IMG/VR virus record: IMGVR_UViG_3300020062_000003
Location: 1-35,829 of that record
Length of the DNA: 35,829 bases
Direction: 5' to 3' (one strand)
Source: a virus
The stretch's first letter is position 1; each line of letters begins with the position of its first letter. Positions 10,915 through 32,530 of the stretch are shown here, piece by piece. Under the pieces are notes generated by a model that was given only the letters and a program-made list of their open reading frames with translations, was not told the DNA's origin and searched no databases. Position numbers and translations under genes: made by a program.

Positions 10915-13900
10915 TTAAGATACTAAAGAACCACCAAAAAAGTTAACTATACCGGTAGTAGAAGGGGCAAATGGTCCCGTGGTAGTTCCATCAACCTGAA
11001 CATTTGCGGTCGCTGGCAATGATCCTGATTTTACTGTTACAAAAGCAGTATCACCTGCAGTCATATTAGTATAAATATCACTTCCTGTTTGACTATATTT
11101 TAAAGAAAAACCTGATATACCACTTGTAACTGGCGTATTTACAATTCTTGAAAATATTTTAGTGCTTGTAGTAAGTGTTACATAGGATGGATTTTGACTA
11201 CTACCATTAAAAAAAGTACCTTCACAAAACACGCCAAAAGCGAAATTGTATAATCCTGTAATAGGAGCAGTAAATACTGAAGTTCCAAGATTAAAATCTC
11301 CACCTAAATCAAATGGTTTAGTATCATAAATAATTTGATAAATAGTACCATCGCCCGTCGCACCGAAAACTGTAGTATTTAAATATGCAAAAAATGATGA
11401 TATACTGCCACCGCCACCACCACCACCTGTTCCAACTGTACCAAGCTGACCAACTGAATTCACAAAAACAGGTATACCATCGTTAATAGTTGGTGTTACA
11501 CCACGAATGCCGTGTATGAATGATTTATTAAGCTGACCATTTCCCGTACCCGTCCCAGAACCAATTCTAAGACTATTTGAGTTTCCTGTCGTTCCAGTAA
11601 CAGTGGCGCCAATAATTATATTATCGCTCTCACTTGATGTGAAGTTGTTACCTGAAGTTGTTCCAACAATCACATTGCGTTGACCAGTAGTCAATCCTGT
11701 TCCAGAACCTCTACCAACAATATTATTAGATATACCTGTTGTAAGAGCTGATGCGGATAATGATCCAACTACAACATTAGAAGATCCTGTCGTCATATTT
11801 GGTGCTGCAGATGTTCCATATATAGCATTAGCAGCCCCTGTAGTAATAGAATTAGCTGCAGACACTCCATATATAACATTAGAACCTCCTGTAGTAAACG
11901 CTGTCGCTGCATTTGCTCCATAAACAGAGTTATTGGATCCTGATAATGTTAAATTGCCAGCGTTCAAGCCCATAATAGTATTGTTACTACCGTCAGTTAC
12001 ATTGAATAGCACTATATTAGCAGAACCAGAAAATGATACTGTCGAACCGGCATGCTTTGTTGATTTGCTAGCTAAAATATTAATTATACCAGCAGAAGGT
12101 ATTGCGGTACCAGAATCAGTCGTAAATGATGAAGCAGATGAAAAACCACCAGCTGTTCCAAGTTGTCCACTTGAATCAATGAATACAGGAATAGCATCTG
12201 CAACGCCTGTTGTTATTCCACGTATACCAGCAACAAATGCTTTATTAAGCTGACCATTACCAGTACCTGTTGATAAACCAATTCTAAGAACATTTGATTC
12301 ACCAGTTACGCCGGTAACTGAATTTCCAATAACTATATTACGGCTTTCACTGGATGTGTAATTATTTCCTGTAACAGCTCCAAGAATAGTATTACGTTGA
12401 CCTGTAGTTAATGCAGCTCCTGATCCTCCACCCAAAATAGTATTTAATGTTCCTGTTGAAAGAACTCCTGCAGAAACTGATCCAAATATGGTATTAGATC
12501 CTCCAGTTGTAATAACTGGTGCAGATGTTGCTCCAAATACAGTATTAAATGTTCCTGATGACGCTGTATTACCAGCATTCAAACCCATGATAGTATTATT
12601 ACTAGCATCAGTTACATTGAACAATATTGTATTACCAGAAGTAGAAAATGATACCGTTGAACCGGCATGTTTTGCTGCTGTATTTGCTATTATATTAATT
12701 ATACCATTAGTAGGTGTAGCACCAGATCCTGTATCACCATCAAATGCTTCAGCAAGTTCAACACCTTCTGTAGTAAGTTGTCCATTCGAACTAATGAATA
12801 CAGGAATAGCATCATCAATATCTGGAATTATATTGAGAATTCCATGAATAAATGCTTTATTAAGTTGTCCATCTGCTAAGCCTGTAGATAATCCAATTCT
12901 TAAAGTATTCGAATCTCCTACAACACCTGGAGTTAAATTACCAATAATTATATTACTACTCTCGGTAGTAGTATAAGAATTTCCTGTAGTGGATCCTAAG
13001 AAAATATTATTAGTCCCATCGACTAATAAAGTTGCAGATCCTTGTCCAATAATTGTATTAGCTAATCCAGATGTGAGATTTAATGCTGAAGCAGATCCTA
13101 ATATAGTATTGTCTTCTCCTGTAATAAGATTCGCTGCAACAGATCCTCCAAATATAGAGTTTCCACTTCCAGTAGTAAGATTCAATGCAGATGCTTGTCC
13201 AAATATAGAGTTAATATTTCCCGTTGTAAGAGATATTAAAGAACTTCCTCCCACTACAGTATTATTTGTTCCTGTATATGCTAAATTACCACTATCTTCA
13301 CCAATAATAGTGTTACCATTAGTATCAGTTACATTAAGCAAAACTTCATTACCAGAAGCATCAAATGATACTGTTGCTCCGCAGTGAAGAGCTGCTGTAT
13401 CAGCTATAATTTCAATTACACCACCAGCAGGAGTTGCTGTTCCATCATCACCATCAAATACCGTTGTTCCGCCACCACCGCCTATTACAGATGCAGTGAG
13501 TGTGCTTGTTCCAGGAGATCCTACTATTGTTATAGTAGTGCCATCACCGACAATATTAACATTACCTAATGTTGGCCCAACTGGTCCACCACTATTACCA
13601 GTAACTGTATCAATTGTTGCACCACCAATACCAACTGTTCCAAGTTGACCATTAGAATCTATAAATACAGGAACGCCATTACCAGCTGCTGGAGTTATTC
13701 CACGAATACCTTGAATGAATGTTTTATTAATTTGCCCATTTCCTGCTCCCGTTGATAAACCAATTCTTAATGCATTTGATTCACCCAAAGTTCCAGTGAC
13801 TAAGTTACCAATAATTATATTGTTACTCTCGGTAGATGTGTAAGCATTTCCTGTAACAGATCCAACAATTAAATTACGGTTCCCTGTAGTTATTGAAATT

Positions 13901-15495
13901 CCCGAGCCTTCACCAATGATTGTATTAGCTAGCCCTGTTGTAATAAGTGATGCTGAGAATGATCCAAACACAGAGTTATTAGATCCAGTCGTAAGACCCC
14001 TTAAAGAAGTTGATCCACATACTGTATTAGCTAAAGCTACTCCTGGTGTATATGTTAAATTACCACTATCTGAACCGATAATGGTATTATCATCATCATC
14101 ACTTACGTCCAACGTAATAGTATTACTTGCGCCAGAAAATAAAACTGTTGCTCCTGCATTTAGTGATGCATTGTCAGCAATTATATTAAGAATACCAGCA
14201 GCTTCAGTTGCAGTTCCATCATCAGTAGGAAATGATTGTGCTCCAATTCCACCACCAACCAATGATACTGTCAAAGTACTTGTTCCAGGATTACCAGTTA
14301 CGGTAATAGTAGCTCCATCTCCAATTACATTAATATTACCAGCAGTACCAGAAACAGCACCACCAGTATTACCTGTCAATGTTGTTAGTAAACCACCAGC
14401 TCCAACAGTACCTAATTGACCACTAGAATCAATAAATACTGGAATGCCATCAGCAGCAGCTGGAGTTATTCCACGTATACCATGAATAAATGATGCATTA
14501 AGCTGTCCATTACCAGTACCGGTCGATACACCAATTCTAAGGGTATTTGATTCACCTAAAATGCCCCCTACTTGATTACCAATAACTATATTACTACTCT
14601 CAGCTCCAGTATAATTATTACCAGTAACAGCACCTATGATGACATTGCGTTGTCCGGTAGTTAATGAACTTGCAGAAGTTCCCCCAATAACAACATTAGA
14701 ACTTCCTGTTGTAAGAATTGGCGCAGATGTTGATCCTAATACAGTATTATTTGTTCCAGACAATGTTAGATTGCCACTATTTAGACCAATTATAGTATTA
14801 TCATCAGCATCAGTTACTTCTAATAAAACAGTATTACTAGTGCCAGAAAATAAGACAGATGATCCTGCTTGTAATGCTGCATTATCAGTAATTATATTAA
14901 GTACCCCACCAATGTCATTGGCAGTGCCATCATCGGTAGGAAAAGATGTTGCTCCTCCACCACCACCAATTACTGATGCAGTAAGAGTACTTGTTCCAGG
15001 GTTGCCTGCGATGGTTATTGTGGTCCCATCTCCAACAATATTTATGTTTCCTAGAGTTGGCCCAACTGGTCCACCACTATTACCGGTAACTTCTTGGACG
15101 ACATCACCAGGTCCACCAGTTGAATTGAGTGTTATAGTATTAGTCCCAGGATTGCCATCAAATGAAAACCCTACTATACCTGATACAAGATTTATATTAG
15201 CAAGACCATCAGGAGTAATTGCACCACCGCTATCACCTGTTAATGTGTCTAATGATCCTGAACTACTCTCTAGTTTTTGCCATGTAGCTAATGATCCCTT
15301 TGATACCATATCTCCCGCAAGAGAAACAAGTACCCAAACAGTTTCATTTGCTTCATTAAGCCACATATCTCCTATAGAGACATTTTGAATATCGAAGTCA
15401 TTTGGATCTCTATCGTTAAAGGTCCAGTTTGGTGGTTGATTAGCATTAGTTCCGGTATATGCGGTTCCTTGCTTTCCACCTAATCTATTACTCAT
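10915..15495 (-). CDS. Giant tail fibre (1526 aa): N-terminal anchor, five tandem fibre-shaft modules, C-terminal C1q/TNF-like domain
   Basis: Five copies of a module ending SES.NI.IGN...GESN.LRIG.STG.GNGQLNK.FI.GIRGI...IPVFIDS.GQLGT, with ends near aa 366, 625, 911, 1117 and 1363. AGGAG RBS. See findings. Confidence 0.85.
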   Translation of the reverse strand: MSNRLGGKQGTAYTGTNANQPPNWTFNDRDPNDFDIQNVSIGDMWLNEANETVWVLVSLAGDMVSKGSLATWQKLESSSGSLDTLTGDSGGAITPDGLANINLVSGIVGFSFDGNPGTNTITLNSTGGPGDVVQEVTGNSGGPVGPTLGNINIVGDGTTITIAGNPGTSTLTASVIGGGGGATSFPTDDGTANDIGGVLNIITDNAALQAGSSVLFSGTSNTVLLEVTDADDNTIIGLNSGNLTLSGTNNTVLGSTSAPILTTGSSNVVIGGTSASSLTTGQRNVIIGAVTGNNYTGAESSNIVIGNQVGGILGESNTLRIGVSTGTGNGQLNASFIHGIRGITPAAADGIPVFIDSSGQLGTVGAGGLLTTLTGNTGGAVSGTAGNINVIGDGATITVTGNPGTSTLTVSLVGGGIGAQSFPTDDGTATEAAGILNIIADNASLNAGATVLFSGASNTITLDVSDDDDNTIIGSDSGNLTYTPGVALANTVCGSTSLRGLTTGSNNSVFGSFSASLITTGLANTIIGEGSGISITTGNRNLIVGSVTGNAYTSTESNNIIIGNLVTGTLGESNALRIGLSTGAGNGQINKTFIQGIRGITPAAGNGVPVFIDSNGQLGTVGIGGATIDTVTGNSGGPVGPTLGNVNIVGDGTTITIVGSPGTSTLTASVIGGGGGTTVFDGDDGTATPAGGVIEIIADTAALHCGATVSFDASGNEVLLNVTDTNGNTIIGEDSGNLAYTGTNNTVVGGSSLISLTTGNINSIFGQASALNLTTGSGNSIFGGSVAANLITGEDNTILGSASALNLTSGLANTIIGQGSATLLVDGTNNIFLGSTTGNSYTTTESSNIIIGNLTPGVVGDSNTLRIGLSTGLADGQLNKAFIHGILNIIPDIDDAIPVFISSNGQLTTEGVELAEAFDGDTGSGATPTNGIINIIANTAAKHAGSTVSFSTSGNTILFNVTDASNNTIMGLNAGNTASSGTFNTVFGATSAPVITTGGSNTIFGSVSAGVLSTGTLNTILGGGSGAALTTGQRNTILGAVTGNNYTSSESRNIVIGNSVTGVTGESNVLRIGLSTGTGNGQLNKAFVAGIRGITTGVADAIPVFIDSSGQLGTAGGFSSASSFTTDSGTAIPSAGIINILASKSTKHAGSTVSFSGSANIVLFNVTDGSNNTIMGLNAGNLTLSGSNNSVYGANAATAFTTGGSNVIYGVSAANSITTGAANAIYGTSAAPNMTTGSSNVVVGSLSASALTTGISNNIVGRGSGTGLTTGQRNVIVGTTSGNNFTSSESDNIIIGATVTGTTGNSNSLRIGSGTGTGNGQLNKSFIHGIRGVTPTINDGIPVFVNSVGQLGTVGTGGGGGGGSISSFFAYLNTTVFGATGDGTIYQIIYDTKPFDLGGDFNLGTSVFTAPITGLYNFAFGVFCEGTFFNGSSQNPSYVTLTTSTKIFSRIVNTPVTSGISGFSLKYSQTGSDIYTNMTAGDTAFVTVKSGSLPATANVQVDGTTTGPFAPSTTGIVNFFGGSLVS
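10918..11406 (-). other. C1q/TNF-like globular head domain (aa 1364-1526 of the giant fibre)
   Basis: Y1390-x5-D-x4-F-x6-F-x5-G-x-Y-x-F-x5-C almost reproduces the C1q signature as I recall it: F-x5-[ND]-x4-[FYWL]-x6-F-x5-G-x-Y-x-F-x4-[CV]. Confidence 0.6.
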
Positions 15496-15528
15496 TATTA
15501 CTCTCCTAGTGAGATAAATATAACTATT

Positions 15529-18500
15529 TTATAAACGAGCTTCTAAAGCAGCTATTCGTGAATTAAGTTTTTTAATTTCATTTAATAAAAGTGCAGGCAA
15601 TACATGGTACTGAACTGTTTCTATTTCACCATCTTTATTTCGTGCCACAATATCAGGGAATATTTCATTTACTTCTTCAGCAATGAGTCCATATTGTTTT
15701 TTTTCTGAAATATCACCGTTATATATAAACGTTACGGGACGTAAATTAAGAATTGATGATGACTCATCATTCATATCTTCAATATCATGCTTAAAACGCT
15801 TTGATGAAACAATAGTTCCAAGTAAACCTGCTGCACTAATTACTACAGGAACACCACCTGCCGCTGTTACACCAACAACACCTGTAGCAGTAATACCACC
15901 AGTTCCAGAATTCAGTGTTAGAGCAGATACTCCTGTAGTGCTACCAATAGCAATTGTTTTATCTTGTGCTCCTGTTCCTATAGTAATACCACCAGTACCT
16001 GATCTTATTGTTGTAATAGAAGTAGTATTAGTACTACCTAATGTAACTGTTTTAACGCCAGCACCTGTACCTATATCTACTGTACTTGCTGCAGCATTAG
16101 TTGATATAGCTATAGAACCTGTACCAGAATTTAAAGTAATAGTACCATTGCTAGGAGCAGCAGTAATATTGATACCATTAGAACCACCTTGAATTGTAGT
16201 ACTTGATGTAGTATTACTACTACCAATAGTAAGATTTTTTACACCAGCTCCATCAGCTATATCTATATTATTATTTGTAGCATCAGTTGCTATACTTATA
16301 TTTCCAGTACCAGAGTTTATAGTAATACCGCCAGATCCTGATTGAATAGCTGTTGTAGAAGTAGTATTAGTACTGCCAACTGTAACTGTTTTTAGACCAG
16401 CACCTGTACCTATATTAACCGTATTTGTAGTAGCATCAGTTGAAATACCCATGATACCAGTACCAGAATTTGCAGTAATAGGTCCATTAGTAGCTGTGAT
16501 AGAAATGCTACCACTAGCTCCAGTTTGAATAAGTACCGACGAAGTAGTAGTAGTACTACCAATAGTAACTGTTTTAGCTCCTGAACCCGTACCGATATTT
16601 AATGTAGTTGTTGTATTATCAGCAGATATACCTATAGTACCTATACCTGAGTTTACAGTAATACCACCACTTCCAGATTTAATAGCTGTTATAGAAGTAG
16701 TATTGGTGCTTCCTAATGTAACTGTTTTAACGCCAGCACCTGTACCAATGTTTATTGTATTTGCTGTAGCATCAGTTGATACTGATACAGTTCCAGTACC
16801 AGAATTGGCGGTTATAACACCATTTGTTGCTGTAATAGAAATACCAGAAGTTCCTGATTGAACAGTTGTAACTGATGTAGTTGTTACACTACCAAGAGTG
16901 ACTGTCTTAATTCCAGCCCCTGTACCAATATTTACCGTATTATTTGTAGCATCAGCTGATAATCCAAAAATACCTGTACCAGAATTTGCAGTAATAGGTC
17001 CATTAGTAGCTGTGATAGAAATACCGCCACTTCCCGACTGAAGTGTTGAAATTGAAGTAGTATTTGTACTACCAACAGTAACTGTTTTTACACCACCACC
17101 TGTACCCATATTTACCGTAGTTGCTGTATTATCAGCTGATATGCCTATGGTACCAGTACCTGAGTTTACAGTAATACCACCACTTCCAGATTTAATAGCT
17201 GTTATAGAAGTAGTATTAGTGCTTCCTAATGTAACTGTTTTAACGCCAGCACCTGTACCAATATTGACATTGTTTGCTGTAGCATCACTAGATATATTAA
17301 CATTAGAAGTTCCAGAATTCATGGTAATCACACCATTACCAGCAGTTATCGCAATTCCACCAGTTGCCGATTGAATCGTGGTTGAAGATGTATTACTAGT
17401 GCTACCTACTGTAACTGTTTTAGTACCAGCACCACTACCTACATTTACAGTGGTTGTTGTAGCATCAGCTGATATACCTAAAATACCCGTATTAGAATTG
17501 ATGGTCAGACCACCATCACCTGATCTTATTGTTGTGGTAGAACCAGTGGTAGTAGCTCCAATAGTAATTACTTTCCCACCACTACCAGTACCTATATTTA
17601 ATATAGTTGCTGTTGCATTTGCAGTAGCTATACTTATAGTTCCGGTACCAGATGTAATAGAAATAGGACCATTGTTAACTGAAGAATCAAGCTGTATACC
17701 TACAGATCCTGCTGTAATCGTTGTATTTGATGTAGTGTTATTACTTCCAATATTAACAGTTTTTGCTCCAGCTCCCGTACCTATATTAACAGTACTTGTT
17801 GTAGCATCGGTTGCCAAGGATACAGTTCCACCATTAGCAGTAATCCCCGCAAATGTTGTAGTAATTGTATTTGCTGCACCACCAAATGATAATCCCGTAG
17901 TACCACCAGCAAATGTAATTGCAGGGCCTGTTTGTGCTCCCCCAGTATTGCCAGTTATTGAAGTTATAGCACTAATGCTACCACCAGCGGTTCCAAGTTG
18001 ACCGGTAGAATCAATAAAAACAGGAATAGCATCTGCAACACCTGTTGTTATACCACGTATACCAGAAATAACAGCTTTATTAAGCTGATTAATTCCTGTT
18101 CCTGTACTATTACCAATTCGTAAAGTATTTGATTCGCCTACCGTACCTATAGTTTGAAAACCAATAAGTACATTACTACTTTCACTTGATATATAGCTAG
18201 CTCCTGCAGACTTTCCTATAAATATATTCCGTGAACCCGTAGTTAAACTTTGTCCTACTTGAGTGCCAAAAAAAACATTATCCTCACCTGATGAAAGTAC
18301 TATTGCATTATTTTCTCCTAATGCAGTATTACCTTGGCCTGATATTGTTAAGTTACCACTAGCCACACCAATAATAGTATTTAAGTTACCATCACTCACT
18401 TCAAATTGAATAGTATTACCACTACCAGAAAAAAATACTGATGATCCTGCTCCTAATCCTACTTGATTAGCTTTTATATTAATATTACCCATAGAAGGTG

Positions 18501-18747
18501 ATATTGCCCCACCATTGTCTCCTGTAAGTGTAGTTACAGCACCAATAGAAGCAATATCTTGAAAGCTTGGTAATCCACCAAAAGGGCCATTTGCTGTTAA
18601 TACTAAACCAGCGGTTACTAAAGAATCAACAAATTGAATAGGAGTTGTACTAAATATTCCACCACAAATAACGGCATATGGAGTCATCAATTGTGTCTGT
18701 GTACCACCTTCAACAATTGGTAAGGGAGATCGTTGCTTATATGACAT
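15529..18747 (-). CDS. Tail fibre (1072 aa) with one shaft module, a long beta-solenoid repeat region and a C-terminal S74 intramolecular chaperone domain
   Basis: C-terminus GLLGTIVSSKRFKHDIEDMNDESSSILNLRPVTFIY...YGLIAEEVNEIFPDIV...VQYHVLPALLLNEIKKLNSRIAALEARL is a classic peptidase S74 / endosialidase-type chaperone. Confidence 0.9.
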   Translation of the reverse strand: MSYKQRSPLPIVEGGTQTQLMTPYAVICGGIFSTTPIQFVDSLVTAGLVLTANGPFGGLPSFQDIASIGAVTTLTGDNGGAISPSMGNINIKANQVGLGAGSSVFFSGSGNTIQFEVSDGNLNTIIGVASGNLTISGQGNTALGENNAIVLSSGEDNVFFGTQVGQSLTTGSRNIFIGKSAGASYISSESSNVLIGFQTIGTVGESNTLRIGNSTGTGINQLNKAVISGIRGITTGVADAIPVFIDSTGQLGTAGGSISAITSITGNTGGAQTGPAITFAGGTTGLSFGGAANTITTTFAGITANGGTVSLATDATTSTVNIGTGAGAKTVNIGSNNTTSNTTITAGSVGIQLDSSVNNGPISITSGTGTISIATANATATILNIGTGSGGKVITIGATTTGSTTTIRSGDGGLTINSNTGILGISADATTTTVNVGSGAGTKTVTVGSTSNTSSTTIQSATGGIAITAGNGVITMNSGTSNVNISSDATANNVNIGTGAGVKTVTLGSTNTTSITAIKSGSGGITVNSGTGTIGISADNTATTVNMGTGGGVKTVTVGSTNTTSISTLQSGSGGISITATNGPITANSGTGIFGLSADATNNTVNIGTGAGIKTVTLGSVTTTSVTTVQSGTSGISITATNGVITANSGTGTVSVSTDATANTINIGTGAGVKTVTLGSTNTTSITAIKSGSGGITVNSGIGTIGISADNTTTTLNIGTGSGAKTVTIGSTTTTSSVLIQTGASGSISITATNGPITANSGTGIMGISTDATTNTVNIGTGAGLKTVTVGSTNTTSTTAIQSGSGGITINSGTGNISIATDATNNNIDIADGAGVKNLTIGSSNTTSSTTIQGGSNGINITAAPSNGTITLNSGTGSIAISTNAAASTVDIGTGAGVKTVTLGSTNTTSITTIRSGTGGITIGTGAQDKTIAIGSTTGVSALTLNSGTGGITATGVVGVTAAGGVPVVISAAGLLGTIVSSKRFKHDIEDMNDESSSILNLRPVTFIYNGDISEKKQYGLIAEEVNEIFPDIVARNKDGEIETVQYHVLPALLLNEIKKLNSRIAALEARL
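15532..15807 (-). other. Peptidase S74 intramolecular chaperone auto-processing domain (last 92 aa)
   Basis: SSKRFK..I.DM...L..L.pv.F.Y.......yGliAeEv.e..P..V motif string; the expected self-cleavage point is at the Ser-Ser. Confidence 0.85.
15930..17835 (-). repeat. In-frame coding repeat array (about 14-15 units of about 43-45 aa) with a superimposed 513-516-bp higher-order duplication
   Basis: Unit G(T/S)G.G.KTVT.GST.TTS.T.I.SG.GGI.I....G.I...SGTG...IS.DAT...VNI. Bases 16646-16749 and 17159-17262 are 103/104 identical. Bases 16462-16505 and 16978-17021 are also near-identical. Confidence 0.85.
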
Positions 18748-18758
18748 TTTTTTTCCTA

Positions 18759-19874
18759 TTAATATATTTCATATGATGATCCATTACCAATAATGGCAAC
18801 AGATTGATATTCTGAATCCATTACAAAAGTAGTAGAACCATCTATATTAACAACGCCACCAACTGTCGTGACAGTAATATTATTAGTATCAGCTGTTCCT
18901 GTTCTATCTTTTATTACAAATGTTCTACCAAGTGTTGCTGCATTAGGTAATTGAATTGTTATAGGAATAGCAGTAGAATCAACACTTAAATAGTCATCTG
19001 TAATAAGTACAACATAAGGTGATGTAGTAACATTTGTATATGCTAAGGTTACTGAACCAGAACTAGCTATAGTAATTAGATTTGCACCAGGAGTAATGGT
19101 AATACCAGTTCCTGCTGTAATAACAGCTGTTCCAAGTTGATTACCAACTTCTGTTACAACAGTAGCTGTTGATCCGACATTGATTCCATCAATACCACTA
19201 ATGAAAGCTTTATTAAGTTCTCCATCTGCTGTACCCGTTGCTACACCAATTCTGAGAACATTCGATTCACCTGTAACACCATCAATATCAGCGCCAATAA
19301 TTATATTGCTGCTTTCACTTGAAGTATAAAGTTCTGCCGTTCCACTTCCTATAATAGTATTTAAATTACCTGTTGTAATGTTTGGAGCAGCATCTCCACC
19401 TATGAATGTGTTTGAATTGCCAGTTGAAATGTTTATTGCTGAAGATGCTCCTAATACCGTATTTGATAATCCTGATATCGTAGGGTTTCCACTATCTTGA
19501 CCAATAATAGTGTTAATATTACTATCAGTTAAATTTAGAGTAATTATGTTTCCAATACCAGAAAACGCTACAGATGATCCTGAATTTTGATTTGCTACAT
19601 CAGTTATTATATTAATCACGCCTGCAATAGGAATTGCAACGTCACCATTATCTGTATGAAATTCTTCGACTACTGGTCCACCGCCAACTAATGAGATGGT
19701 AAGTGTATTAGTTACAGAGCTACCAGCTACTGTTATACCAACACCATCTCCAACAACGTTAATATTATTAGTACCATCAGGCCCAACTGGACCTCCGGAA
19801 TTACCTTTTAAGGTCTGAACTACACTTCCAGGTGGGAATGCTCCAGATGTGAAAAAATTTCCTGCTTGACTCAT
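18759..19874 (-). CDS. Tail fibre (371 aa): one shaft module plus a distinct C-terminal receptor-binding-type domain
   Basis: GNSGGPVGPDGTNNINVVGDG...SESSNIIIGADIDGVTGESNVLRIGVATGTADGELNKAFISGIDGI. C-terminus YLSVDSTAIPITIQLPNAATLGRTFVIKDRTGTADTNNITV...SYEIY is typical of phage fibre tips. Confidence 0.8.
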   Translation of the reverse strand: MSQAGNFFTSGAFPPGSVVQTLKGNSGGPVGPDGTNNINVVGDGVGITVAGSSVTNTLTISLVGGGPVVEEFHTDNGDVAIPIAGVINIITDVANQNSGSSVAFSGIGNIITLNLTDSNINTIIGQDSGNPTISGLSNTVLGASSAINISTGNSNTFIGGDAAPNITTGNLNTIIGSGTAELYTSSESSNIIIGADIDGVTGESNVLRIGVATGTADGELNKAFISGIDGINVGSTATVVTEVGNQLGTAVITAGTGITITPGANLITIASSGSVTLAYTNVTTSPYVVLITDDYLSVDSTAIPITIQLPNAATLGRTFVIKDRTGTADTNNITVTTVGGVVNIDGSTTFVMDSEYQSVAIIGNGSSYEIY

Positions 19875-20873: not shown

Positions 20874-20927
20874 TTTTATAGGAATGAAGCTCTGCTAATA
20901 ATATCTTATGATTTAGAAAACACTACT

Positions 20928-22592
20928 TCAGGCTGCACATGTTAAGTTGGTCCATGTAGTTCCTGCATCTGTGTTTATATAGGCACGTGAAGTTGCACCA
21001 GCTGGGTCAGATCTTAAATATAATGATCCTATAGGAGCTGTTATAGCACCACTAGGACTACCAGCACCAGCAAGAACAAGTAAACCACCAGGTAAACTTA
21101 ATCCACGACCAGCAACTGTTACACTCAATCCATTTGCGGCAGCTACATTTGTTCCTGTAGGAGTATTAAGTACTAAAGTAGAACCAGCTGTCGTTGAACC
21201 AACAGTTGTTGCATGGGCAGTTGCGCTTGTTCCCAAGTTCAATGATGAACCTGTACCAACATTTATATTTACTGCAGTTGCGCCAGTAATATTACCTATA
21301 GTAATTGTTCGAGCAGCAGCACCAGTACCAATGTTAATAGCTTGAGCAACCGCATTATTACCTACGTTAATCACACCAGCAGAAGAGTTAATTGATAATG
21401 CACCAGTAGCATTAAGAACTAAAGTTCCTGTAGAAGCTGCAGTAATATTTCCTGTACCTGAAAGAAGGCTTAATGATGCTGCTCCAGTAGCAGAACCAAT
21501 AGTAATCACGTTATCTATTGCACCAGTACCAATATTAACCGTCTTGATACCTGTTCCACCAGTAGCAACTTCAACTGTTTGAGCTCCTGTACCTGGAGCA
21601 ATTGCTACCGTTCCTGTTTGTAAACCAGTACCACCAATACTTACTGTGCCAGTTGTCATACCTGTACCAATTGCAACTGATCCACCCGTTTGGGTATTAC
21701 CGATTGCAATTACATTGGCTCCTGTTCCGCCGATAGAGATTGTATTTGCAACAGCAGCGCCAGTACCAATTAGTATTGTTTTACCAACCGCATCAGCACC
21801 AAGACTAATTGAACCTGTTCCAGTTGTAAGCAAGAAATTACCATTAGTTGCACCAAGAGAAAATCCTGCTGTTCCCGCAAGTAAAGTTACACCACCAGCA
21901 GCATCTCCAGCTATTATATTTACAGCACTAGCGCTAGCTAATCCACCTTGGATAGTTATACCACCAGCATTAGATAAAAGACTAAAAGAATCAATAGCAG
22001 TACCTTGAGAAACTATAAAATCAATAGTCTCTAAAGCGCCACCATTGGTAGTAAAGCTAATAGCAGGATCAGTATTTGAAGTAGTGGTGAAACTTATTGC
22101 AGCGGCAGAAGTTAAATCGAAATCACCATTGGCGATAATGTCTCCATTTACTGTCAAATCAGAAGTCAAAATTACCGCACCTGTAACATCTAATGTACCA
22201 CCAATTGTTGTATCACTAGTAACATCTAACGTACTTGATAAAGTTGTTGCTCCCGCTACTAATACACCTAATGTAGCAATACTACCTGGTGCCATATTAA
22301 GATCGCCAGCTGTTATATTAACATCGCCTGCTGTAACGGTTAAATCGCCAGGATTCACTGTAAACGAGGTAGCTGCTACTGCACCCGCAACCGCCGCTGT
22401 CCATATATTAAGACCACCAATTGCAGAAGTTAGAATAAAAAACGATTGGGAAGTAGTATTTACCCAGGTTGTACCGATTTCTGCTGTGTCAGAATCCAAA
22501 GGATCTCTATCAGAAACGATAGGTTCTTGCTGTAGGCTTGCATTCGTTCCCGGATAACCATACAGCGAAAAGCGCCTATTAACTTTAGTCAT
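20928..22592 (-). CDS. Tail fibre (554 aa) with an N-terminal anchor motif and a Gly/Thr/Ala-rich solenoid
   Basis: N-terminal SDRDPLDSDTAEIGTTWVNTTSQSFFILTS parallels NDRDPNDFDIQNVSIGDMWLNEANETVWVLVS in the giant fibre. C-terminus GSLYLRSDPAGATSRAYINTDAGTTWTNL. Start at the second ATG (22592), 6 nt after AAGGAG. Confidence 0.75.
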   Translation of the reverse strand: MTKVNRRFSLYGYPGTNASLQQEPIVSDRDPLDSDTAEIGTTWVNTTSQSFFILTSAIGGLNIWTAAVAGAVAATSFTVNPGDLTVTAGDVNITAGDLNMAPGSIATLGVLVAGATTLSSTLDVTSDTTIGGTLDVTGAVILTSDLTVNGDIIANGDFDLTSAAAISFTTTSNTDPAISFTTNGGALETIDFIVSQGTAIDSFSLLSNAGGITIQGGLASASAVNIIAGDAAGGVTLLAGTAGFSLGATNGNFLLTTGTGSISLGADAVGKTILIGTGAAVANTISIGGTGANVIAIGNTQTGGSVAIGTGMTTGTVSIGGTGLQTGTVAIAPGTGAQTVEVATGGTGIKTVNIGTGAIDNVITIGSATGAASLSLLSGTGNITAASTGTLVLNATGALSINSSAGVINVGNNAVAQAINIGTGAAARTITIGNITGATAVNINVGTGSSLNLGTSATAHATTVGSTTAGSTLVLNTPTGTNVAAANGLSVTVAGRGLSLPGGLLVLAGAGSPSGAITAPIGSLYLRSDPAGATSRAYINTDAGTTWTNLTCAA

Positions 22593-22634
22593 AATCATCT
22601 CCTTAATAATTTAAAATAATCTTTCTATCATTTA

Positions 22635-22664
22635 ATGACATAAAAAATTAATAATCAATATACT
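22635..22664 (+). promoter_or_regulatory. Candidate promoter for the counter-oriented island: ATGACA, N18, TATACT
   Basis: 5/6 -35 at 22635-22640. The -10 at 22659-22664 is the same TATACT hexamer as in the switch promoters. Confidence 0.4.
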
Positions 22665-22677
22665 AGCTTTTTATTCG

Positions 22678-22689
22678 CTAACATGTTAG
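22678..22689. promoter_or_regulatory. Perfect 12-bp palindrome CTAACATGTTAG between the candidate -10 and the RHH gene (candidate operator)
   Basis: Read directly. Confidence 0.4.
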
Positions 22690-22714
22690 AATTGATAATA
22701 GAAAGGTAAACAAT

Positions 22715-22888
22715 ATGACAGAAATAAAGAAGCGTAAACAAATGGCTTTTGATATAAACCCAGAAGTTCACAAGAAAGTTAAAGTATTAGCTGCTCTTAG
22801 AAATATCTCAATAAATCTATGGATGTCTAGAGCTATAAATGATCGAATAGAAAAAGAAACTAAATATGATGATAAACTTAAGGAATGA
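22715..22888 (+). CDS. Ribbon-helix-helix (CopG/Arc/ParG-like) DNA-binding protein (57 aa), not in the ORF track
   Basis: My translation: MTEIKKRKQMAFDINPEVHKKVKVLAALRNISINLWMSRAINDRIEKETKYDDKLKE. It shows beta-strand (MAFDI), helix (PEVHKKVKVLAA), turn and helix (SINLWMSRAINDRI). GAAAGG RBS. Confidence 0.6.
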   Translation: MTEIKKRKQMAFDINPEVHKKVKVLAALRNISINLWMSRAINDRIEKETKYDDKLKE

Positions 22889-22889
22889 T

Positions 22890-23066
22890 ATGACAACAAT
22901 TGTTAATTTTTGTTATAGAGGAATATTAAAAGGGATAGAAATATTTATAAAAATGCATATTGCTATAGCATTAATAACTATCACTATTCCCTTATTAATA
23001 TGTTTATGTTATCTTGCAATAAACTTTATTGCTACTTTATCAAGTTTACTACCAATCTTATCTTGA
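22890..23066 (+). CDS. Small hydrophobic membrane peptide (58 aa)
   Basis: ORF track 22866-23066. I prefer ATG 22890, 4 nt after AAGGAA and 1 nt after the RHH stop. MTTIVNFCYRGILKGIEIFIKMHIAIALITITIPLLICLCYLAINFIATLSSLLPILS. The last 58 nt overlap the 3' end of the convergent 393-aa gene. Confidence 0.4.
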   Translation: MTTIVNFCYRGILKGIEIFIKMHIAIALITITIPLLICLCYLAINFIATLSSLLPILS

Positions 23067-24190
23067 ACTTGTTGTTCAATATCTATTGGAACTTCTCCAT
23101 GATTTTCTCTAATGATAGATCGTGCAGCCTTAGCTTCAATCTCTGTTAACTCATTAAGTGATCGTATATTTTGTATAATTTTTTTCTTACCTTTGTCTGT
23201 TTGCATTAAATTAGGTACGGTTTGAAGAAAAAGTTCAACCTCTTTCTGAGTGATTCTACTGCCAAAATACTGTTTAGCATTTTTAACAAACTCATTAGAA
23301 AGCTTTTCAAATTCTTCAATATCAGCAGCATTTCCTGAATACCATTTTACGCCGCCTTTCAAGATTTCTGCCAAAGGAGCGGTAAGTCCACTAATAAAAG
23401 GAGCATGCTCAAGTTTTGATAATGCTGACCAAATAGCAGCATTAGGTAGATTACCTTTATCTATCAGGTTTTCCATTTTCTTGAGTCTCAAATCACCTTC
23501 TTTAGAAGCTTTTTCTTTATCTTTTAAAGTCTCGACATACTTCTTAGTTTCTTTAATATTAAATTGCTTCTTTTTCTCAGCAGCAACTTGTTCAGCGCGA
23601 GCTTCTTTTAACGCAAGAGTTTTTTCTGCAAATTCTAACTTTTTTCTTTCTCTTCTCTCTTGCGGAGTTGCAAGCAAATTCTCAATCAATTTAGTTCTTT
23701 CAGGAGTCAATTGATGTTGTGCCTGTCCTTGAGTTTGTTGTTGCATTTGAGGTTGTTGTTGGCCTTGTTGTGGTTGTGATCCTTGCAATCCTGATAAAAG
23801 ACTATCTTGCTGATCAGGTTGACCAAGTGCTTTTCTAATAAAATAATCACGGTCAAATTGTTGAGGTTGTTGCTGCTGACCCTGTAACTGTTGCATACCA
23901 CCATCAAGATTACTAGCTTGTTCTCGTGAGCTAGGCGGTTCATTTAACTGAATTAATGAACCAATGTTCTGCATAGCATTTTTACGTTCTTCAGGATTGA
24001 GACTACTCAAAAAATTAGCTGATTGTTGTCCTAATATGGGTTCCCATGTTTTAGCAAATTGAGAACGTTCAAGTTGTTGATCATATTTCTTTGTTAGATG
24101 TGCTAATTTTAATTCAGCTAACTGATTCAAACCAGAACCTAAAGATGAAGCTAGGCTGCTTGCTCTACTTGGGTCATTTATTATTTGCAT
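23009..24190 (-). CDS. Q-rich coiled-coil virion protein (393 aa), candidate internal or ejection protein
   Basis: Poly-Q/G tract (QGQQQQPQQ...QPQQGQQQPQMQQQTQGQAQHQ) plus K/E-rich helices. Position between tail and fibre genes. AGGAG RBS. No enzymatic motif seen. Confidence 0.45.
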   Translation of the reverse strand: MQIINDPSRASSLASSLGSGLNQLAELKLAHLTKKYDQQLERSQFAKTWEPILGQQSANFLSSLNPEERKNAMQNIGSLIQLNEPPSSREQASNLDGGMQQLQGQQQQPQQFDRDYFIRKALGQPDQQDSLLSGLQGSQPQQGQQQPQMQQQTQGQAQHQLTPERTKLIENLLATPQERRERKKLEFAEKTLALKEARAEQVAAEKKKQFNIKETKKYVETLKDKEKASKEGDLRLKKMENLIDKGNLPNAAIWSALSKLEHAPFISGLTAPLAEILKGGVKWYSGNAADIEEFEKLSNEFVKNAKQYFGSRITQKEVELFLQTVPNLMQTDKGKKKIIQNIRSLNELTEIEAKAARSIIRENHGEVPIDIEQQVQDKIGSKLDKVAIKFIAR

Positions 24191-24205
24191 GATATCTCCT
24201 AATCC

Positions 24206-30540: not shown

Positions 30541-31554
30541 CTATTGATTGTCTACCATAAATGACTTACCAGCAACCCAGTAAACTACGTCATTCAAAAC
30601 TCCAGCAGGAGAACTTGCTCCAGCAGTGAGAAGAATACCTATTTTTCCTGTATTATTAGTAGAGTCACCTAATATGTTAGCACCTGCTAGAAGTGCTTCT
30701 GCAGTATTCTCACCCATAGGAACAACTTGAGCTGGCGTAAATCCAGGTGCAGTTGTGAGAGGGAATGCAAATGCAGTAAACCCAGTAGTATCAATATCAA
30801 TGGTGATGGTATTAGTTACACCATCAACATCAGCTTCATCAATAGCAATGATTGTAGCTTGCATACCATCTAATTCAGTCATACCGAATGCTAAAGCAGT
30901 AACGGTAGGAACAATCAACCTTACAACTTGTCCGATAGTAAAGTCATGATCCACAGACAAGGTAACAATAGCTTCGGTAGCTTGTGAAATCTTGGTTATG
31001 AAACGAGTACTCGGATAGTATAAAGGGCTAAAAGGAATTCTACGGAATGTACCAGCGCCTGGATTAGCACTCGCTATTGCAGCCATATAAGCAAGTTCAA
31101 AACTTACTCCTGGGGTAAGATTTGCAATAGTAAAGTCTAAACCACGAAGCTGTAAAGCTCCAACAGTAGAGAAAATACGAACAACATCACCATCACTTAA
31201 TGATGAAGTATTTGCAGTATTAACTACTGGAGGATTTGCGCTAGTAATACCAGTTAATGCTAATGAAGGGCCTGGTAAATTAACAGAAGTGTCTATTAAA
31301 TAGAAGCCTGCATTAGCAGCAATTTGAGCTACAGCTAAAGCGCCTGTAACTGCCGTCTTAGTATAAATAGTACCACGACCCTGCGTCATTCCCCGTTGCC
31401 AGTAGAATTCAGCACCGGTACCAGCACCAGCAGCATATGACACTGTCTGATTTTTAACCCACATCCAATCTAAATCAGAACGTAGGAAAACTATGAGAGA
31501 TTCACCATCAGAGGTGAAACGACCTTGATTAGTTCCTGAAAAAACAACTGACAT
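30541..31554 (-). CDS. Capsid-associated protein (337 aa) with two E1-FCCH-like beta-barrel domains (candidate decoration or head-fibre protein)
   Basis: LTGITSANPPVVNTANTSSLSDGDVVRIFSTVGALQLRGLDFTIANLTPGVSFEL and ITKISQATEAIVTLSVDHDFTIGQVVRLIVP...GMTELDGMQATIIAIDE...IDIDTTGFTAFAF. Immediately downstream of the capsid gene. AAGGAG RBS. Confidence 0.55.
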   Translation of the reverse strand: MSVVFSGTNQGRFTSDGESLIVFLRSDLDWMWVKNQTVSYAAGAGTGAEFYWQRGMTQGRGTIYTKTAVTGALAVAQIAANAGFYLIDTSVNLPGPSLALTGITSANPPVVNTANTSSLSDGDVVRIFSTVGALQLRGLDFTIANLTPGVSFELAYMAAIASANPGAGTFRRIPFSPLYYPSTRFITKISQATEAIVTLSVDHDFTIGQVVRLIVPTVTALAFGMTELDGMQATIIAIDEADVDGVTNTITIDIDTTGFTAFAFPLTTAPGFTPAQVVPMGENTAEALLAGANILGDSTNNTGKIGILLTAGASSPAGVLNDVVYWVAGKSFMVDNQ

Positions 31555-31564: not shown

Positions 31565-32509
31565 TTATCTTAGCGTACAACGCATGTTGGTTATCCAGAG
31601 ATCATTCAGAATACGCGGAACTTCAGCAAATACATAACCAATGGTTACGTTCTGAAATAACGGATCTGAGAAAACTGGTGGTCTATACAAGAAACGAGCA
31701 GAATAATTATCTTGCTCTACGCAAGCTAATGCTTCCATACCTTGTACAAACACATTATAAACATCGTTACCTAATCCTGAAGCGTTTGGTGAGACAGACG
31801 CTACTGAAGAAAGCATGAAGCGGACGTTATTTACACTTCCCCACTCACTTCTTAATACACGATTGTCATTTGGATAGTTGCATTTAGAAATGAACCCGTT
31901 AATATTGTTCAAATCTTTTGATAATTTAGTGTGACCTAAAGCCAAATACGCATCACGTACTGGGCCTGTACCAAATTTATCTTCACCACCAATGGTATCT
32001 AAAATCATCCATGCATCATTTGTTAACAATGCAGAAGTGACTTCATCAATATCAGAAAGAGATAAATCAGTTGGAAGATCACCATTGTTACCACCAGTAC
32101 AGTTATACATTGAAGCAGTAGATGCTAACATATCACGTGTTAATTGGTCTTCAGTCATACGAAGAGACAAACCAAGTAGTTCTGCTGTTTCATTAAGAAC
32201 AGGATCTTGGTTTTGTAAGGTAACTTGTTGGTTAATAGCTACATATAATCCATAAAATGACATAGTAGCATCAATATCAACACGATTTAATGGAGTCGCT
32301 GGAGGAGTTGCGCCGCTCGGTCCCAATGGAACTGGAGCAGTTGGCAATCTATCATAGCGAGCCATACGTAACGTTCTTCCACCTTTAGCTGGCAAACGTT
32401 TGGATAATGCACCTAATTTCATAATCAGATTCGGTGTTCTAACCGATAAAAGCACATCATCAAACGTTTGTTGAACTGGAGCAGGAAGCGTTGTAGGTGT
32501 AGTTATCAT
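31565..32509 (-). CDS. Major capsid protein (314 aa), HK97 fold, N4-gp56-like family
   Basis: VQQTFDDVLL....LGALSKRLPAKGGRTLRMARYDRL...PLGPSGATPP...IDATMSFYGLYV...DPVLNETAELLG...EDQLTRDML follows the N-terminal pattern of that family. Start at MITTPTT (ATG 32509), which follows GGAG. Confidence 0.8.
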   Translation of the reverse strand: MITTPTTLPAPVQQTFDDVLLSVRTPNLIMKLGALSKRLPAKGGRTLRMARYDRLPTAPVPLGPSGATPPATPLNRVDIDATMSFYGLYVAINQQVTLQNQDPVLNETAELLGLSLRMTEDQLTRDMLASTASMYNCTGGNNGDLPTDLSLSDIDEVTSALLTNDAWMILDTIGGEDKFGTGPVRDAYLALGHTKLSKDLNNINGFISKCNYPNDNRVLRSEWGSVNNVRFMLSSVASVSPNASGLGNDVYNVFVQGMEALACVEQDNYSARFLYRPPVFSDPLFQNVTIGYVFAEVPRILNDLWITNMRCTLR

Positions 32510-32530
32510 ACACACACTCCTAAAATACAA

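Follow-up and report, generated by a model that had tools for sequence, protein, structure and literature searches.

A putatively self-repressed ribbon-helix-helix operon with exchangeable membrane-peptide cargo in the virion gene block of an uncultured podophage lineage

The DNA analysed here (a stretch of 35,829 nt, hereafter the window) comes from an uncultured podophage lineage of soil and peat with a P22-type portal. A 410-bp gap that extends from the stop of a 393-aa ORF (23009) to the start of a 556-aa fibre-like ORF (22598), both on the minus strand, holds a small island of two genes in the opposite orientation. The features of the island and its borders are as follows.

20928-22598, minus strand: 556-aa ORF, the first fibre-like gene, divergent from the ribbon-helix-helix (RHH) gene
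22635-22640, minus strand: conserved -10-like hexamer TGTCAT, a candidate leftward promoter element
22635-22664, plus strand: ATGACA-N18-TATACT, a previously proposed candidate promoter, matching at 10 of 12 positions
22664-22692, plus strand: conserved RHH promoter, with -35 TAGCTT, a 17-nt spacer and -10 TAGAAT (22687-22692)
22678-22689, no strand: perfect 12-bp palindrome CTAACATGTTAG, operator-like, within the promoter spacer except for its last 3 nt, which begin the -10
22715-22888, plus strand: 57-aa RHH ORF, identified by its open frame and a match to Pfam HicB PF05534
22880-22885, plus strand: Shine-Dalgarno sequence AAGGAA of the peptide ORF, lying within the last codons of the RHH gene
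22890-23066, plus strand: 58-aa hydrophobic peptide ORF (family A), identified by its open frame and homologues
23009-23066, no strand: 58-nt 3'-3' overlap of the peptide ORF with the 393-aa ORF
23009-24190, minus strand: 393-aa Gln-rich virion-module ORF, the last gene before the island

All sequence features listed in a preliminary description of this DNA were found where it had placed them, and its central observation, a counter-oriented RHH gene with a tiny hydrophobic peptide between virion genes, is borne out by the letters themselves. The RHH stop TGA (22886-22888) is followed by a single base and then by the ATG of the peptide (22890), which has its own AAGGAA, as had been described; both the Shine-Dalgarno sequence and the ATG are conserved. 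The RHH ORF had been considered missing from the ORF track, but public gene calls include both it and the peptide ORF. The island is strongly AT-rich, with a GC content of 0.241 compared with 0.359 for the window. The fibre-like gene probably starts at an ATG at 22592, downstream of AAGGAG (the public gene call is 554 aa); it has no direct HMM match of its own (Pfam, PHROG, NCBIfam) and shows 30-33% similarity to a 1072-aa ORF that matches the PHROG tail fibre family phrog_1980. The 393-aa protein has 98 homologue clusters, none of them named, no HMM match, and no tblastn match among 50,697 isolated-phage records; its position suggests an internal or ejection protein. Elsewhere in the window, a plus-strand cluster of signal-peptide and transmembrane (TM) proteins occupies 34388-35666.

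The 57-aa ORF encodes a true ribbon-helix-helix protein of the Arc/MetJ/CopG superfamily. The assignment was first proposed from the sequence, and HMM searches support it, with a match to Pfam HicB PF05534 above the cutoff (27.1 bits against 21, E 3.9e-6), PHROG matches to HicB-like and Arc-like families, PDB profile matches to CopG-family chains only, and weak Pfam matches to antitoxin RHH families (Antitox_RHH, ParD, PSK_trans_fac). The AF2 model (pLDDT 80.5) consists of an extended N-terminus and helices at residues 16-28 and 33-56, and its top Foldseek match is the P22 Arc-operator complex 1par (1par_A, prob 0.97); nearly all of the better-scoring matches are RHH proteins. The RHH core, with the beta-strand KRKQMAFD, spans residues 7 to about 50, and the remainder is a short charged tail, KETKYDDKLKE. 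In size (45-57 aa) and beta-alpha-alpha fold, the protein resembles the minimal autorepressors Arc and CopG, from which it differs in belonging to a distinct, narrow family with the loop R-N-I-S between helix 1 and helix 2. This family forms 18 clusters among 5.8 billion proteins, all within this phage group, and tblastn against the 50,697 phage records gave no match.

The palindrome upstream of the RHH gene had been proposed as an operator. The site is present, and both its position and its dyad symmetry are conserved among relatives, but it is not evidence on its own: the window contains 13 perfect 12-bp palindromes, compared with 13.3±3.4 in shuffled sequences. The operator alignment comprises 26 distinct close-clade promoters, drawn from about 33 related metagenomic loci. 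In 24 of these 26, the -35 hexamer is followed by 8 nt and then by CTAnnnTGnTAg running into the -10, such that the last 3 nt of the operator 12-mer are the start of the -10. Dyad-symmetric variants at the same position in relatives are CTAACATGTTAG, CTATCATGATAG and CTAGCATGCTAG, and A:T, T:A and G:C versions all occur at operator positions 4 and 9. The beta-strand Q-x-T-F-D, in place of Q-M-A-F-D, is found in exactly the three lineages that have the CTAT...ATAG operator, so that the change of RHH residue 11 from A to T co-varies with the change of operator positions 4/9 from A:T to T:A in 3/3 lineages compared with 0/23 others, a count uncorrected for phylogeny. Distant relatives with other RHH beta-strands have other palindromes (ATGTGTACACAT, CAATGTACATTG) in the same promoter spacer. 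The genome has only one good operator copy, as would suit a dedicated autoregulator; another near-copy, at 30669, does not exceed chance. The placement of a dyad operator inside the spacer and the -10 is shared with Arc, whose operator lies within Pant (P22 record). Taken together, these patterns suggest that the RHH protein binds DNA and represses its own gene.

That the island has a candidate promoter of its own stands, although at a different place than originally proposed. Alignment of relatives points to a conserved sigma-70-type RHH promoter at 22664-22692, the -35 of which is degenerate in the window (TAGCTT) and TTGACw in most relatives. ATGACA-N18-TATACT is poorly conserved among relatives and occurs at chance density (7 promoter-like sites in the window, against 5.2±2.6 expected from shuffles). 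Its proposed -35, ATGACA, is the reverse complement of the conserved minus-strand -10-like element, which lies about 43 nt upstream of the fibre gene start, reads TATAAT, TGTAAT or TATCAT in relatives, and has the invariant columns A56 and A59 in the relatives' alignment A2. A conserved TTG motif (22653-22658) is located on the fibre-gene strand, 12 nt from this hexamer, and the pattern TTGWTT-N12-TRTMAT occurs once in the window. Because the spacing is only 12 nt, the leftward element is not a canonical sigma-70 promoter, and we do not call it one.

The 58-aa peptide has NFCYRGILKGIEIFIK as its conserved amphipathic N-terminus, then a hydrophobic helix (KD19 maximum 2.65) and the uncharged C-terminus ATLSSLLPILS. 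The AF2 model is one continuous helix (residues 2-57, pLDDT 90.6), on which basis the peptide would be expected to insert into the membrane. It has no Pfam, PHROG, NCBIfam or PADLOC match. PADLOC and NCBIfam models, applied also to the RHH protein, the other peptides and the neighbouring proteins, yielded nothing informative, and no model of a toxin or of a defence system matched. Family-A homologues are 38-74% identical and keep the frame open, with in-frame indels and with differences concentrated at third codon positions. A Shine-Dalgarno sequence precedes the ATG by a few nt in 17/17 members of four peptide families, being mostly (A/G)AGGAA and otherwise a related purine-rich variant. Values of pN/pS are 0.37-0.7 for family A, 0.25-0.34 for family C and 0.37 for family B. 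Judging from these patterns of conservation, the 58-aa ORF is a real, translated-looking gene for a predicted membrane helix. The opposite reading, that the 120 nt after the RHH gene are a 3' UTR or a buffer for convergent transcription and that the frame is open only because the sequence is T-rich and lies partly antisense to the end of the 393-aa gene, appears hardly credible. It draws on the many spurious hydrophobic ORFs that T-rich DNA produces in these loci, on the constraint that the overlapping gene imposes on the last 19 codons, and on the pN/pS of distant family-A pairs, which approaches 0.8-1.0. Against this, no other 40-100-aa ORF on the two strands of the window (71.6 kb scanned) combines an ATG start with a Shine-Dalgarno sequence and KD17>=2.0, the most conserved part of the peptide is the N-terminal 25 residues, outside the overlap, and independent families in the same slot, clearly so family C, are under purifying selection.

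The preliminary description suggested looking for the same island in related phages. A counter-oriented RHH gene (RHH-like in the distant clade), divergent from the first fibre gene, is present in every locus that spans the junction, and this synteny is preserved even where the neighbouring 175-aa protein is only 44% identical. The distant-clade ORFs, kept here as "RHH-like", have sub-threshold Pfam scores, every match being to an RHH family. The region had been described as an insert, taken as a recent arrival; because the RHH gene is in every junction-spanning relative, it is a feature of the lineage instead. The cargo downstream is another matter. Close RHH proteins are 60-81% identical and yet precede at least 5 unrelated families of 26-96-aa membrane peptides, and the slot also accommodates HNH, zinc-ribbon and MerR genes. 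In about 28 of 29 informative loci, the RHH gene is followed by one or more small hydrophobic ORFs, the L011 lineage being without a clear membrane ORF. Retention of the RHH gene alone, which had been named as an observation that would speak against the pair, was encountered in part: the family-A peptide is kept in about ten sampled loci (the window, L001, L002/3, L007, L016, L030, L039/L055, L045/46 and L077), and other membrane peptides are found elsewhere. Genes for a 138-aa (L001), a 117-aa (L016) and a 239-aa HNH (L007) protein lie between the RHH gene and the family-A peptide, and two different peptides occur in tandem in L038 and L039. Family-D peptides have an N-terminal TM segment and a charged tail. 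Peptide family shows no clean association with the type of 393-aa protein: L005/L008 have the closest 393-aa C-terminal region (73% identity) and yet a different peptide family.

At the convergent end, the peptide ORF runs 58 nt into the 3' end of the 393-aa gene (23009-23066), in agreement with what had been reported. The same 58-nt overlap recurs exactly in L003, L007 and L016, and the last island ORF overlaps the convergent gene by 4-111 nt in 22 of 27 informative loci. The convergent junction contains no convincing hairpin, no intrinsic terminators (0) were found on either strand of 22300-23400, and an Rfam search of 22000-23600 gave no match.

The phage portal is 21-23.5% identical to those of Paracoccus, Pseudomonas and Ralstonia podophages, and no more than 23.5% to that of any isolate. 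Megablast of 20900-24200 against the 50,697 phage records gave no match, and the region thus has no annotated relative among isolated phages. No integrase, repressor, lysin or holin is recognisable in the window with Pfam and PHROGs, and no tRNA genes and no prophage copy were found. With neither lysogeny genes nor a prophage copy in evidence, a role exerted from a prophage, of the kind that SieA and Mnt play, lacks support. A scan of genome contigs with the 175-aa neighbour yielded only a 3.5-kb MAG contig (from a Methylococcaceae bin, and unreliable). A 165-kb ENA contig with a homologue of the 393-aa protein was considered as a prophage and rejected as a chimeric assembly, because the phage homology ends in the middle of a fibre gene, where GC jumps from 0.37 to 0.55-0.62.

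The preliminary description could not match the pair to a named system, but an analogue exists in phage P22. The P22 "ant moron" consists of the immI region plus sieA, that is, mnt, arc, ant, sar, orf59a and sieA (NC_002371; PMC2629481; PMC10883804). It occupies the same slot, between the last internal or ejection-type gene and the first receptor-binding gene (gene 16 and the gene 9 tailspike in P22), and mnt (an RHH gene), orf59a (59 aa) and sieA run counter to the late operon and converge on gene 16, an orientation like that of the island. Both the slot and an RHH gene directed against the late operon are thus found here, the ejection-protein identity of the 393-aa product being positional only. 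In each case, an RHH repressor has an operator (here, a candidate one) at its own divergent promoter, and the gene content of the slot is in rapid flux: the ant moron is a variable region, of which ST64T and ST104 hold only mnt and one unknown gene (PMC2629481).

There are also differences. Aligned with hhalign, the RHH A3 profile gives no significant match to Mnt (prob 0.72%, E 0.078) or Arc (prob 0.25%, E 0.24). Neither the 410-bp island nor the slot of any relative contains an ant-like ORF, and there is no arc and no sar. The peptide, with 58 aa and a single helix, is much smaller than SieA, with about 160 aa and 3 TM segments (PMC10883804), and does not belong to the SieA types by sequence (no PHROG or Pfam match); hydropathy and genomic position are the only support for the SieA analogy. 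The membrane peptide is predicted to be co-transcribed with and coupled to the RHH gene, whereas sieA has its own promoter, and P22 orf59a is hydrophilic, unlike the 58-aa peptide. The phage itself is only distantly P22-like (at the level of the portal Pfam family) and shows no lysogeny genes, and the RHH gene occurs throughout its lineage, whereas some P22-like phages lack an ant moron. The label of moron, suggested at the outset, applies in part. A moron is defined as having its own promoter and terminator (PMC2629481); here, the conserved sigma-70-type promoter is accompanied by none of the intrinsic terminators sought in 22300-23400. Atypical composition and cargo turnover are moron-like, but the RHH gene itself, being invariant in presence and well conserved, is unlike a dispensable moron.

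Two further groups of systems offer partial parallels. T4 Imm and Sp are small phage-encoded membrane exclusion proteins. The HK97 gp15 moron is another (PMC10883804). Like these, the slot peptides are short, fast-evolving accessory products in or near structural modules that are predicted to enter the membrane, but they show no homology, and 26-96 aa is the small end of the range. Type II toxin-antitoxin (TA) operons (ParD, HicB C-terminal domain, CopG-antitoxin, FitA) share the upstream RHH gene, the tight coupling and the promoter-embedded operator, and the best Pfam matches of the RHH protein fall in these RHH families. They differ in that the RHH protein described here has no partner-binding extension and no conserved cognate partner, that intervening genes are tolerated, and that the peptide has no recognisable toxin fold.

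We consider it probable that the island works as an accessory operon, expressed on its own and repressed by its own product, at a constant site within the block of virion genes, and the cassette is best read, by analogy, as a counterpart of the P22 ant moron (mnt-orf59a-sieA). A dimeric RHH repressor would bind the dyad-symmetric CTAACATGTTAG and, by occupying the spacer and the -10 of its own sigma-70-type promoter, throttle its own transcript. The same transcript would carry the 58-aa peptide, translationally coupled through the 1-nt gap and its own AAGGAA, and the peptide would form one long helix in the cytoplasmic membrane. The lineage as a whole retains the putative repressor with its promoter and operator but freely exchanges the downstream cargo; the last cargo gene nearly always encodes a very small predicted membrane protein and reaches or overlaps the 3' terminus of the final internal-protein-like gene. 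By analogy with P22, the job of the peptide is most likely membrane-level interference with incoming phage DNA, that is, superinfection exclusion. The RHH protein and the divergent promoter region may also tune the transcription that reaches the fibre genes.

This last function could be the primary one. It is possible, if rather doubtful, that the RHH protein is a core regulator of virion (fibre) gene expression which, sitting between back-to-back promoter elements, sets the level or timing of leftward transcription or late read-through, with the membrane peptides as passengers at a tolerated insertion point. In favour of this, all relatives have the RHH gene, in each case divergent from the first fibre gene; it remains 60-81% identical despite the cargo turnover, and the -10-like element and TTG motif on the fibre-gene strand lie in the same 116-nt intergenic region, with the operator centre about 45-50 nt upstream of the leftward -10-like element. 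There may also be a precedent: for P22, the ant moron has been proposed to adjust PLate read-through into the tailspike gene, perhaps with Mnt and Arc taking part (PMC2629481). However, the operator overlaps the RHH promoter, not the leftward element, which lacks canonical -35 spacing (12 nt), and almost every lineage retains a small membrane ORF even though its sequence is replaced, which suggests that it is selected rather than incidental. Such a regulatory role is, moreover, compatible with an accessory operon.

Small hydrophobic peptides are typical type I toxins, and some type I systems have 3'-overlapping antisense RNAs. The preliminary description viewed the pair as a TA-like or exclusion moron; autoregulation is probable and the coupling stands, but the TA part fares poorly, and it seems unlikely that the RHH protein is an antitoxin or repressor whose fall frees a membrane-depolarising toxin in abortive infection. 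Gene order, 1-nt coupling and an operator in the promoter are as in type II TA operons, the weak antitoxin-family matches point the same way, and both the small hydrophobic peptide and the conserved 3'-3' overlap with a convergent transcript recall type I systems. Nevertheless, the RHH protein is a bare DNA-binding core of 57 aa with no C-terminal toxin-binding domain, its close relatives pair with unrelated peptides, sometimes with two in tandem or with other genes in between, no peptide of the slot has a PADLOC, Pfam or NCBIfam toxin match, and the Rfam search gave no RNA. A role of the peptide as holin, antiholin or lysis-timing factor, with timing set by the RHH protein, is a still poorer fit and very unlikely: the window has no recognisable endolysin or holin, and some slot occupants (family D) are holin-like in shape, but the C-terminus of the family-A peptide is hydrophobic and uncharged, no lysin is adjacent, several unrelated peptides, sometimes two together, fill the slot, and the plus-strand cluster at 34388-35666 is a better candidate for the lysis cassette.

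Returning to the self-repressed accessory operon, a wider reading can be outlined, to which, as one joint claim, we assign a small chance. It would make the region a lineage-wide "micro-protein exclusion locus", in which one conserved RHH-operated promoter drives interchangeable, unrelated 26-96-aa membrane peptides, each of which would jam the trans-envelope DNA-delivery conduit made by the ejection proteins of competing phages. The 3'-3' overlap, found almost throughout, would then be a built-in switch rather than mere compaction: when the phage starts to express its own virion genes, convergent late transcription would silence the mRNA of the peptide, or be silenced by it. If true, this would amount to a protein-coding counterpart of the antisense control in type I systems with 3' overlaps, in phages without a sign of lysogeny.

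If the analogy holds, the principle of the P22 ant moron, a repressor-guarded accessory cassette between ejection-protein and receptor-binding genes, extends to a deep-branching uncultured lineage without detectable sequence homology, suggesting that the ejection/receptor-binding junction has long and generally been a hot spot for genes of phage-phage competition. The lineage also provides a compact natural series of RHH/operator specificity variants, in which a single residue of the beta-strand seems to follow a single symmetric base pair, and at least 5 new, unannotated families of phage micro-membrane proteins that are candidate minimal superinfection-exclusion or membrane-active effectors. 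The cassette is a variation on a known theme that does not overturn current understanding; its value is that of a well-defined, tractable module.

The 410-bp island between the 393-aa and 556-aa ORFs contains two plus-strand ORFs and lies in a phage genome of 35.8 kb and ~36% GC in which nearly all virion genes occupy the minus strand. The key features are as follows.

1039-3102, minus strand: P22-type portal (Pfam PF16510, E 1.9e-69)
3525-4952, minus strand: candidate large terminase, 475-aa ORF (by position only, without HMM hit)
5599-6126, minus strand: gp3-like small-terminase match (weak, sub-threshold)
10915-18747, minus strand: long fibre genes
20928-22598, minus strand: 556-aa fibre-like ORF, one flank of the island
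22635-22664, plus strand: ATGACA-N18-TATACT, promoter proposed in the preliminary description
22678-22689: palindrome CTAACATGTTAG
22715-22888, plus strand: 57-aa ORF, ribbon-helix-helix (RHH) protein
22880-22885, plus strand: AAGGAA, Shine-Dalgarno sequence of the 58-aa ORF
22890-23066, plus strand: 58-aa ORF, predicted membrane peptide, one base after the 57-aa ORF
23009-24190, minus strand: 393-aa Gln-rich ORF, the other flank
31565-32530, minus strand: major capsid protein

The preliminary description accurately located the ORFs, their one-base spacing, the AAGGAA motif, the 58-nt extension of the peptide ORF into the 393-aa gene, the palindrome and the promoter hexamers; it gives the RHH gene as missing from the ORF track, but public gene callers predict both island ORFs. 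With a GC of 0.241 vs 0.359 for the genome, the island is markedly AT-rich, and no intrinsic terminator is predicted on either strand. The label "internal protein" for the 393-aa neighbour comes from genome position alone; this ORF has no HMM match and no match in isolated phages, and its homologue clusters are unnamed.

Elsewhere in the window, two ERF-family recombinase-like ORFs on opposite strands (7915-8535, minus; 9484-10161, plus) enclose a divergent, early-looking control region (8544-8753, minus; 8897-9190, plus), and a RusA resolvase is encoded at 6128-6514. The fibre genes (1526, 1072, 371 and 556 aa; 10915-18747, 18759-19874) have repeated Gly/Thr/Asn-rich segments in common and are strongly mosaic among relatives, one of which carries a Peptidase_S74 chaperone domain in a fibre. 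A second counter-oriented cluster in the virion block (34388-35666, plus) includes ORFs of 231 aa (signal-like N-terminus, Gly-rich TM region), 46 aa (TM segment and charged tail, holin-like in shape), 62 aa and 98 aa (signal and TM), with no match in Pfam, PHROG or PADLOC; it may be a lysis cassette or a further accessory island.

That the 57-aa product is an RHH protein is borne out by its match to the Pfam HicB RHH family above the gathering score (27.1 vs 21 bits) and by an AlphaFold model (18 homologues; pLDDT 80.5) comprising an extended N-terminus and two helices, which in the PDB is matched best by the Arc-operator complex of P22. The better-scoring structural matches are nearly all RHH proteins, among them CopG, MatP and toxin-antitoxin (TA) antitoxins, and the protein also matches Arc-like PHROGs. 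The family is narrow: a set of 5.8 billion proteins contains 18 clusters of it, every one in this phage group.

No isolated phage is related by DNA or via these proteins, and portal identity to any isolate does not exceed 23.5%. Scans of IMG/VR and metagenomes with the 393-aa protein, the RHH protein and the neighbouring 175-aa protein as queries gave ~70 loci, mostly on contigs of 30-38 kb, with a kept order: 752-aa, 175-aa, 250-aa, 393-aa, counter-oriented island, 556-aa, 109-aa, 117-aa, fibres. When related phages were checked for the same island, every junction-spanning locus proved to carry an RHH gene in counter-orientation, diverging from the homologue of the 556-aa ORF, from which we infer that the island was fixed in the lineage long ago and is no recent insertion. 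Within the close clade, these genes were found with a narrow RHH HMM; in the distant clade (175-aa protein 44-52% identical), the position is held by ORFs of 50-93 aa whose sole Pfam matches are to RHH families, all sub-threshold. In some relatives (L015, 5668-6954; L033, 3521-4834; L035, 3235-4560; L011, 6388-7701), an additional ORF of ~430-440 aa on the virion strand separates the island from the 393-aa homologue; in these, the gene convergent with the island is a different one.

The palindrome, previously taken for an operator, is unremarkable when taken alone, 13 perfect 12-bp palindromes being present in the window vs 13.3+-3.4 in shuffles; what stands is its conserved position in relatives. 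Among 26 distinct aligned upstream regions, 24 show a -35 hexamer (TTGACw in most relatives), exactly 8 nt, and then the 12-mer CTAnnnTGnTAg, whose final three bases begin the -10 hexamer (TAGAAT, TAGTAT or TAACAT; spacer 17 nt). Complementarity within the 12-mer is found at positions 2/11 in all 26 loci and at 3/10 in 23, A:T, T:A and G:C are all seen at positions 4/9, and the perfect palindromes vary by lineage (CTAACATGTTAG, CTATCATGATAG, CTAGCATGCTAG and the shifted CTATAATTATAG). Residue 11 is T in the beta-strand (Q-x-T-F-D) of three lineages, and exactly these have CTAT...ATAG (0 of 23 others), a count that takes no account of shared ancestry but suggests that this residue could read the operator directly. 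Distant relatives with other beta-strands have other palindromes, likewise placed in the promoter spacer (for example, TTGACA-ATGTGTACACAT-...TACAAT in L072; CAATGTACATTG ahead of TATAAT in L074). This operator-in-promoter arrangement is that expected for an Arc/CopG-type autorepressor, the binding being predicted from sequence.

Where the relatives have the conserved -35, the window has a degenerate hexamer, TAGCTT. The hexamers of the previously proposed promoter are present, but promoter-like sites in the window occur only at background density and the conserved promoter of the relatives lies elsewhere; read on the minus strand, ATGACA is TGTCAT, the window's version of a conserved -10-like hexamer (TATAAT in L001 and L015) that lies ~43 nt ahead of the fibre gene. 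A conserved TTG is only 12 nt from this hexamer and, therefore, no canonical leftward promoter toward the fibre gene was called. A protein bound at 22678-22689 would block RNA polymerase from either rightward promoter. Just one good copy of the operator is present in the genome, as would suit a dedicated autoregulator; a copy with one mismatch (CTAATATGTTAG, 30669-30680, inside a 337-aa ORF adjoining the capsid gene) is within chance, 2.8 being expected at up to 2 mismatches.

The 58-aa ORF is unique among the window's ORFs of 40-100 aa on both strands in combining an ATG, a Shine-Dalgarno sequence and a strongly hydrophobic 17-residue window, and AlphaFold predicts one helix for it (residues 2-57, pLDDT 90.6). 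Its homologues, family A, are 38-74% identical and occur in roughly ten sampled loci (the window, L001, L002/3, L007, L016, L030, L039/L055, L045/46 and L077) and four further protein clusters. Conservation is strongest at the amphipathic N-terminus NFCYRGILKGIEIFIK, a part that does not overlap the 393-aa gene. Insertions and deletions keep the reading frame, differences are concentrated at third codon positions, and pN/pS is 0.37-0.7 in the closer pairs. Elsewhere, the peptide is replaced by small membrane ORFs of unrelated sequence. These comprise family B, of 47-48 aa; family C, with 51 aa, a TM segment at the C-terminus and a pN/pS of 0.25-0.34; family D, with 44 aa and a TM segment at the N-terminus; and several singletons (26-96 aa). 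Thus, the RHH gene is not all that is kept, although the peptide itself is retained in only part of the loci. At least one small membrane ORF is present in ~28 of 29 informative loci (the exception is L011), some with two peptide families in tandem or with zinc-ribbon or MerR-type genes alongside. A Shine-Dalgarno sequence, mostly (A/G)AGGAA, otherwise a related purine-rich motif, precedes the ATG by a few nt in each of the 17 members of families A-D. Of 27 loci, 22 have a final ORF that extends 4-111 nt into the convergent virion gene, and four family-A loci share an overlap of exactly 58 nt; antisense interplay at this conserved 3'-3' overlap is possible. None of the slot peptides matches Pfam, PHROGs, NCBIfam or PADLOC.

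The best-supported reading is an RHH-autorepressed accessory operon with a small cytoplasmic-membrane peptide as its putative payload; the initial observation is thus confirmed and its interpretation supported in part. The toxin-antitoxin-like component of that interpretation, as a classical type II pair, is disfavoured: the RHH protein lacks a neutralisation domain, its partners are swapped among loci, no toxin model matches, and other genes intervene between RHH and family-A peptide in L001 (138 aa), L016 (117 aa) and L007 (a 239-aa HNH endonuclease). A holin role for family A is likewise disfavoured by its uncharged C-terminus and the absence of an adjacent lysin, and a spurious peptide ORF by the Shine-Dalgarno sequence and the evidence of conservation and selection. 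It is plausible, and compatible with the accessory operon, that the RHH protein and the divergent region contribute to fibre-gene transcription.

Three features point to a membrane-level competitive function of the slot peptides: a membrane micro-protein of one kind or another persists even though non-homologous replacement recurs, the composition is AT-rich, and the DNA-delivery genes are adjacent. Superinfection exclusion would be the most economical guess for this function. No integrase, CI-type repressor, endolysin, holin or tRNA gene was recognisable in the 35.8-kb window and no prophage copy was found; given the lack of integrase, repressor and prophage copy, a lysogen-expressed role is not to be assumed. 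One 165-kb contig (L077; ENA ERZ25039552 contig_23150) joins a frameshift-ridden phage copy of ~37% GC to bacterial DNA of 55-62% GC with broken DnaK fragments; the mid-gene join (~16750, within a fibre gene), GC step and frameshifts look like a chimeric long-read assembly, and it was rejected as a prophage junction.

The annotated P22 genome has sieA, orf59a and mnt, all running against the late operon, between gene 16 (ejection protein) and gene 9 (tailspike); Mnt is an RHH repressor with its operator at the divergent Pant/Pmnt promoters. Villafane et al., who coined the name "ant moron" for this interval, described it as the sole moron site of the morphogenetic cluster and as changing rapidly, with ten types across sixteen genomes; it is reduced to mnt and one unknown gene in ST64T and ST104, and may affect PLate read-through to the tailspike gene (PMC2629481). 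Mutations conferring escape fall in gp16 and gp20, in the C-terminal region of each (PMC10883804). The island is like the ant moron in architecture and position and unlike it in sequence: hhalign of its RHH protein with Arc and Mnt is not significant, orf59a is hydrophilic whereas the island peptide is hydrophobic, SieA has ~160 aa and three TM segments vs a single predicted helix in 58 aa, and ant, arc and sar are absent. By this analogy, the island is a P22 ant-moron-like, RHH-guarded accessory cassette. Cassettes of the ant-moron type are known; new here are the uncultured lineage, the novel peptide families and the tidy set of operator and beta-strand variants.
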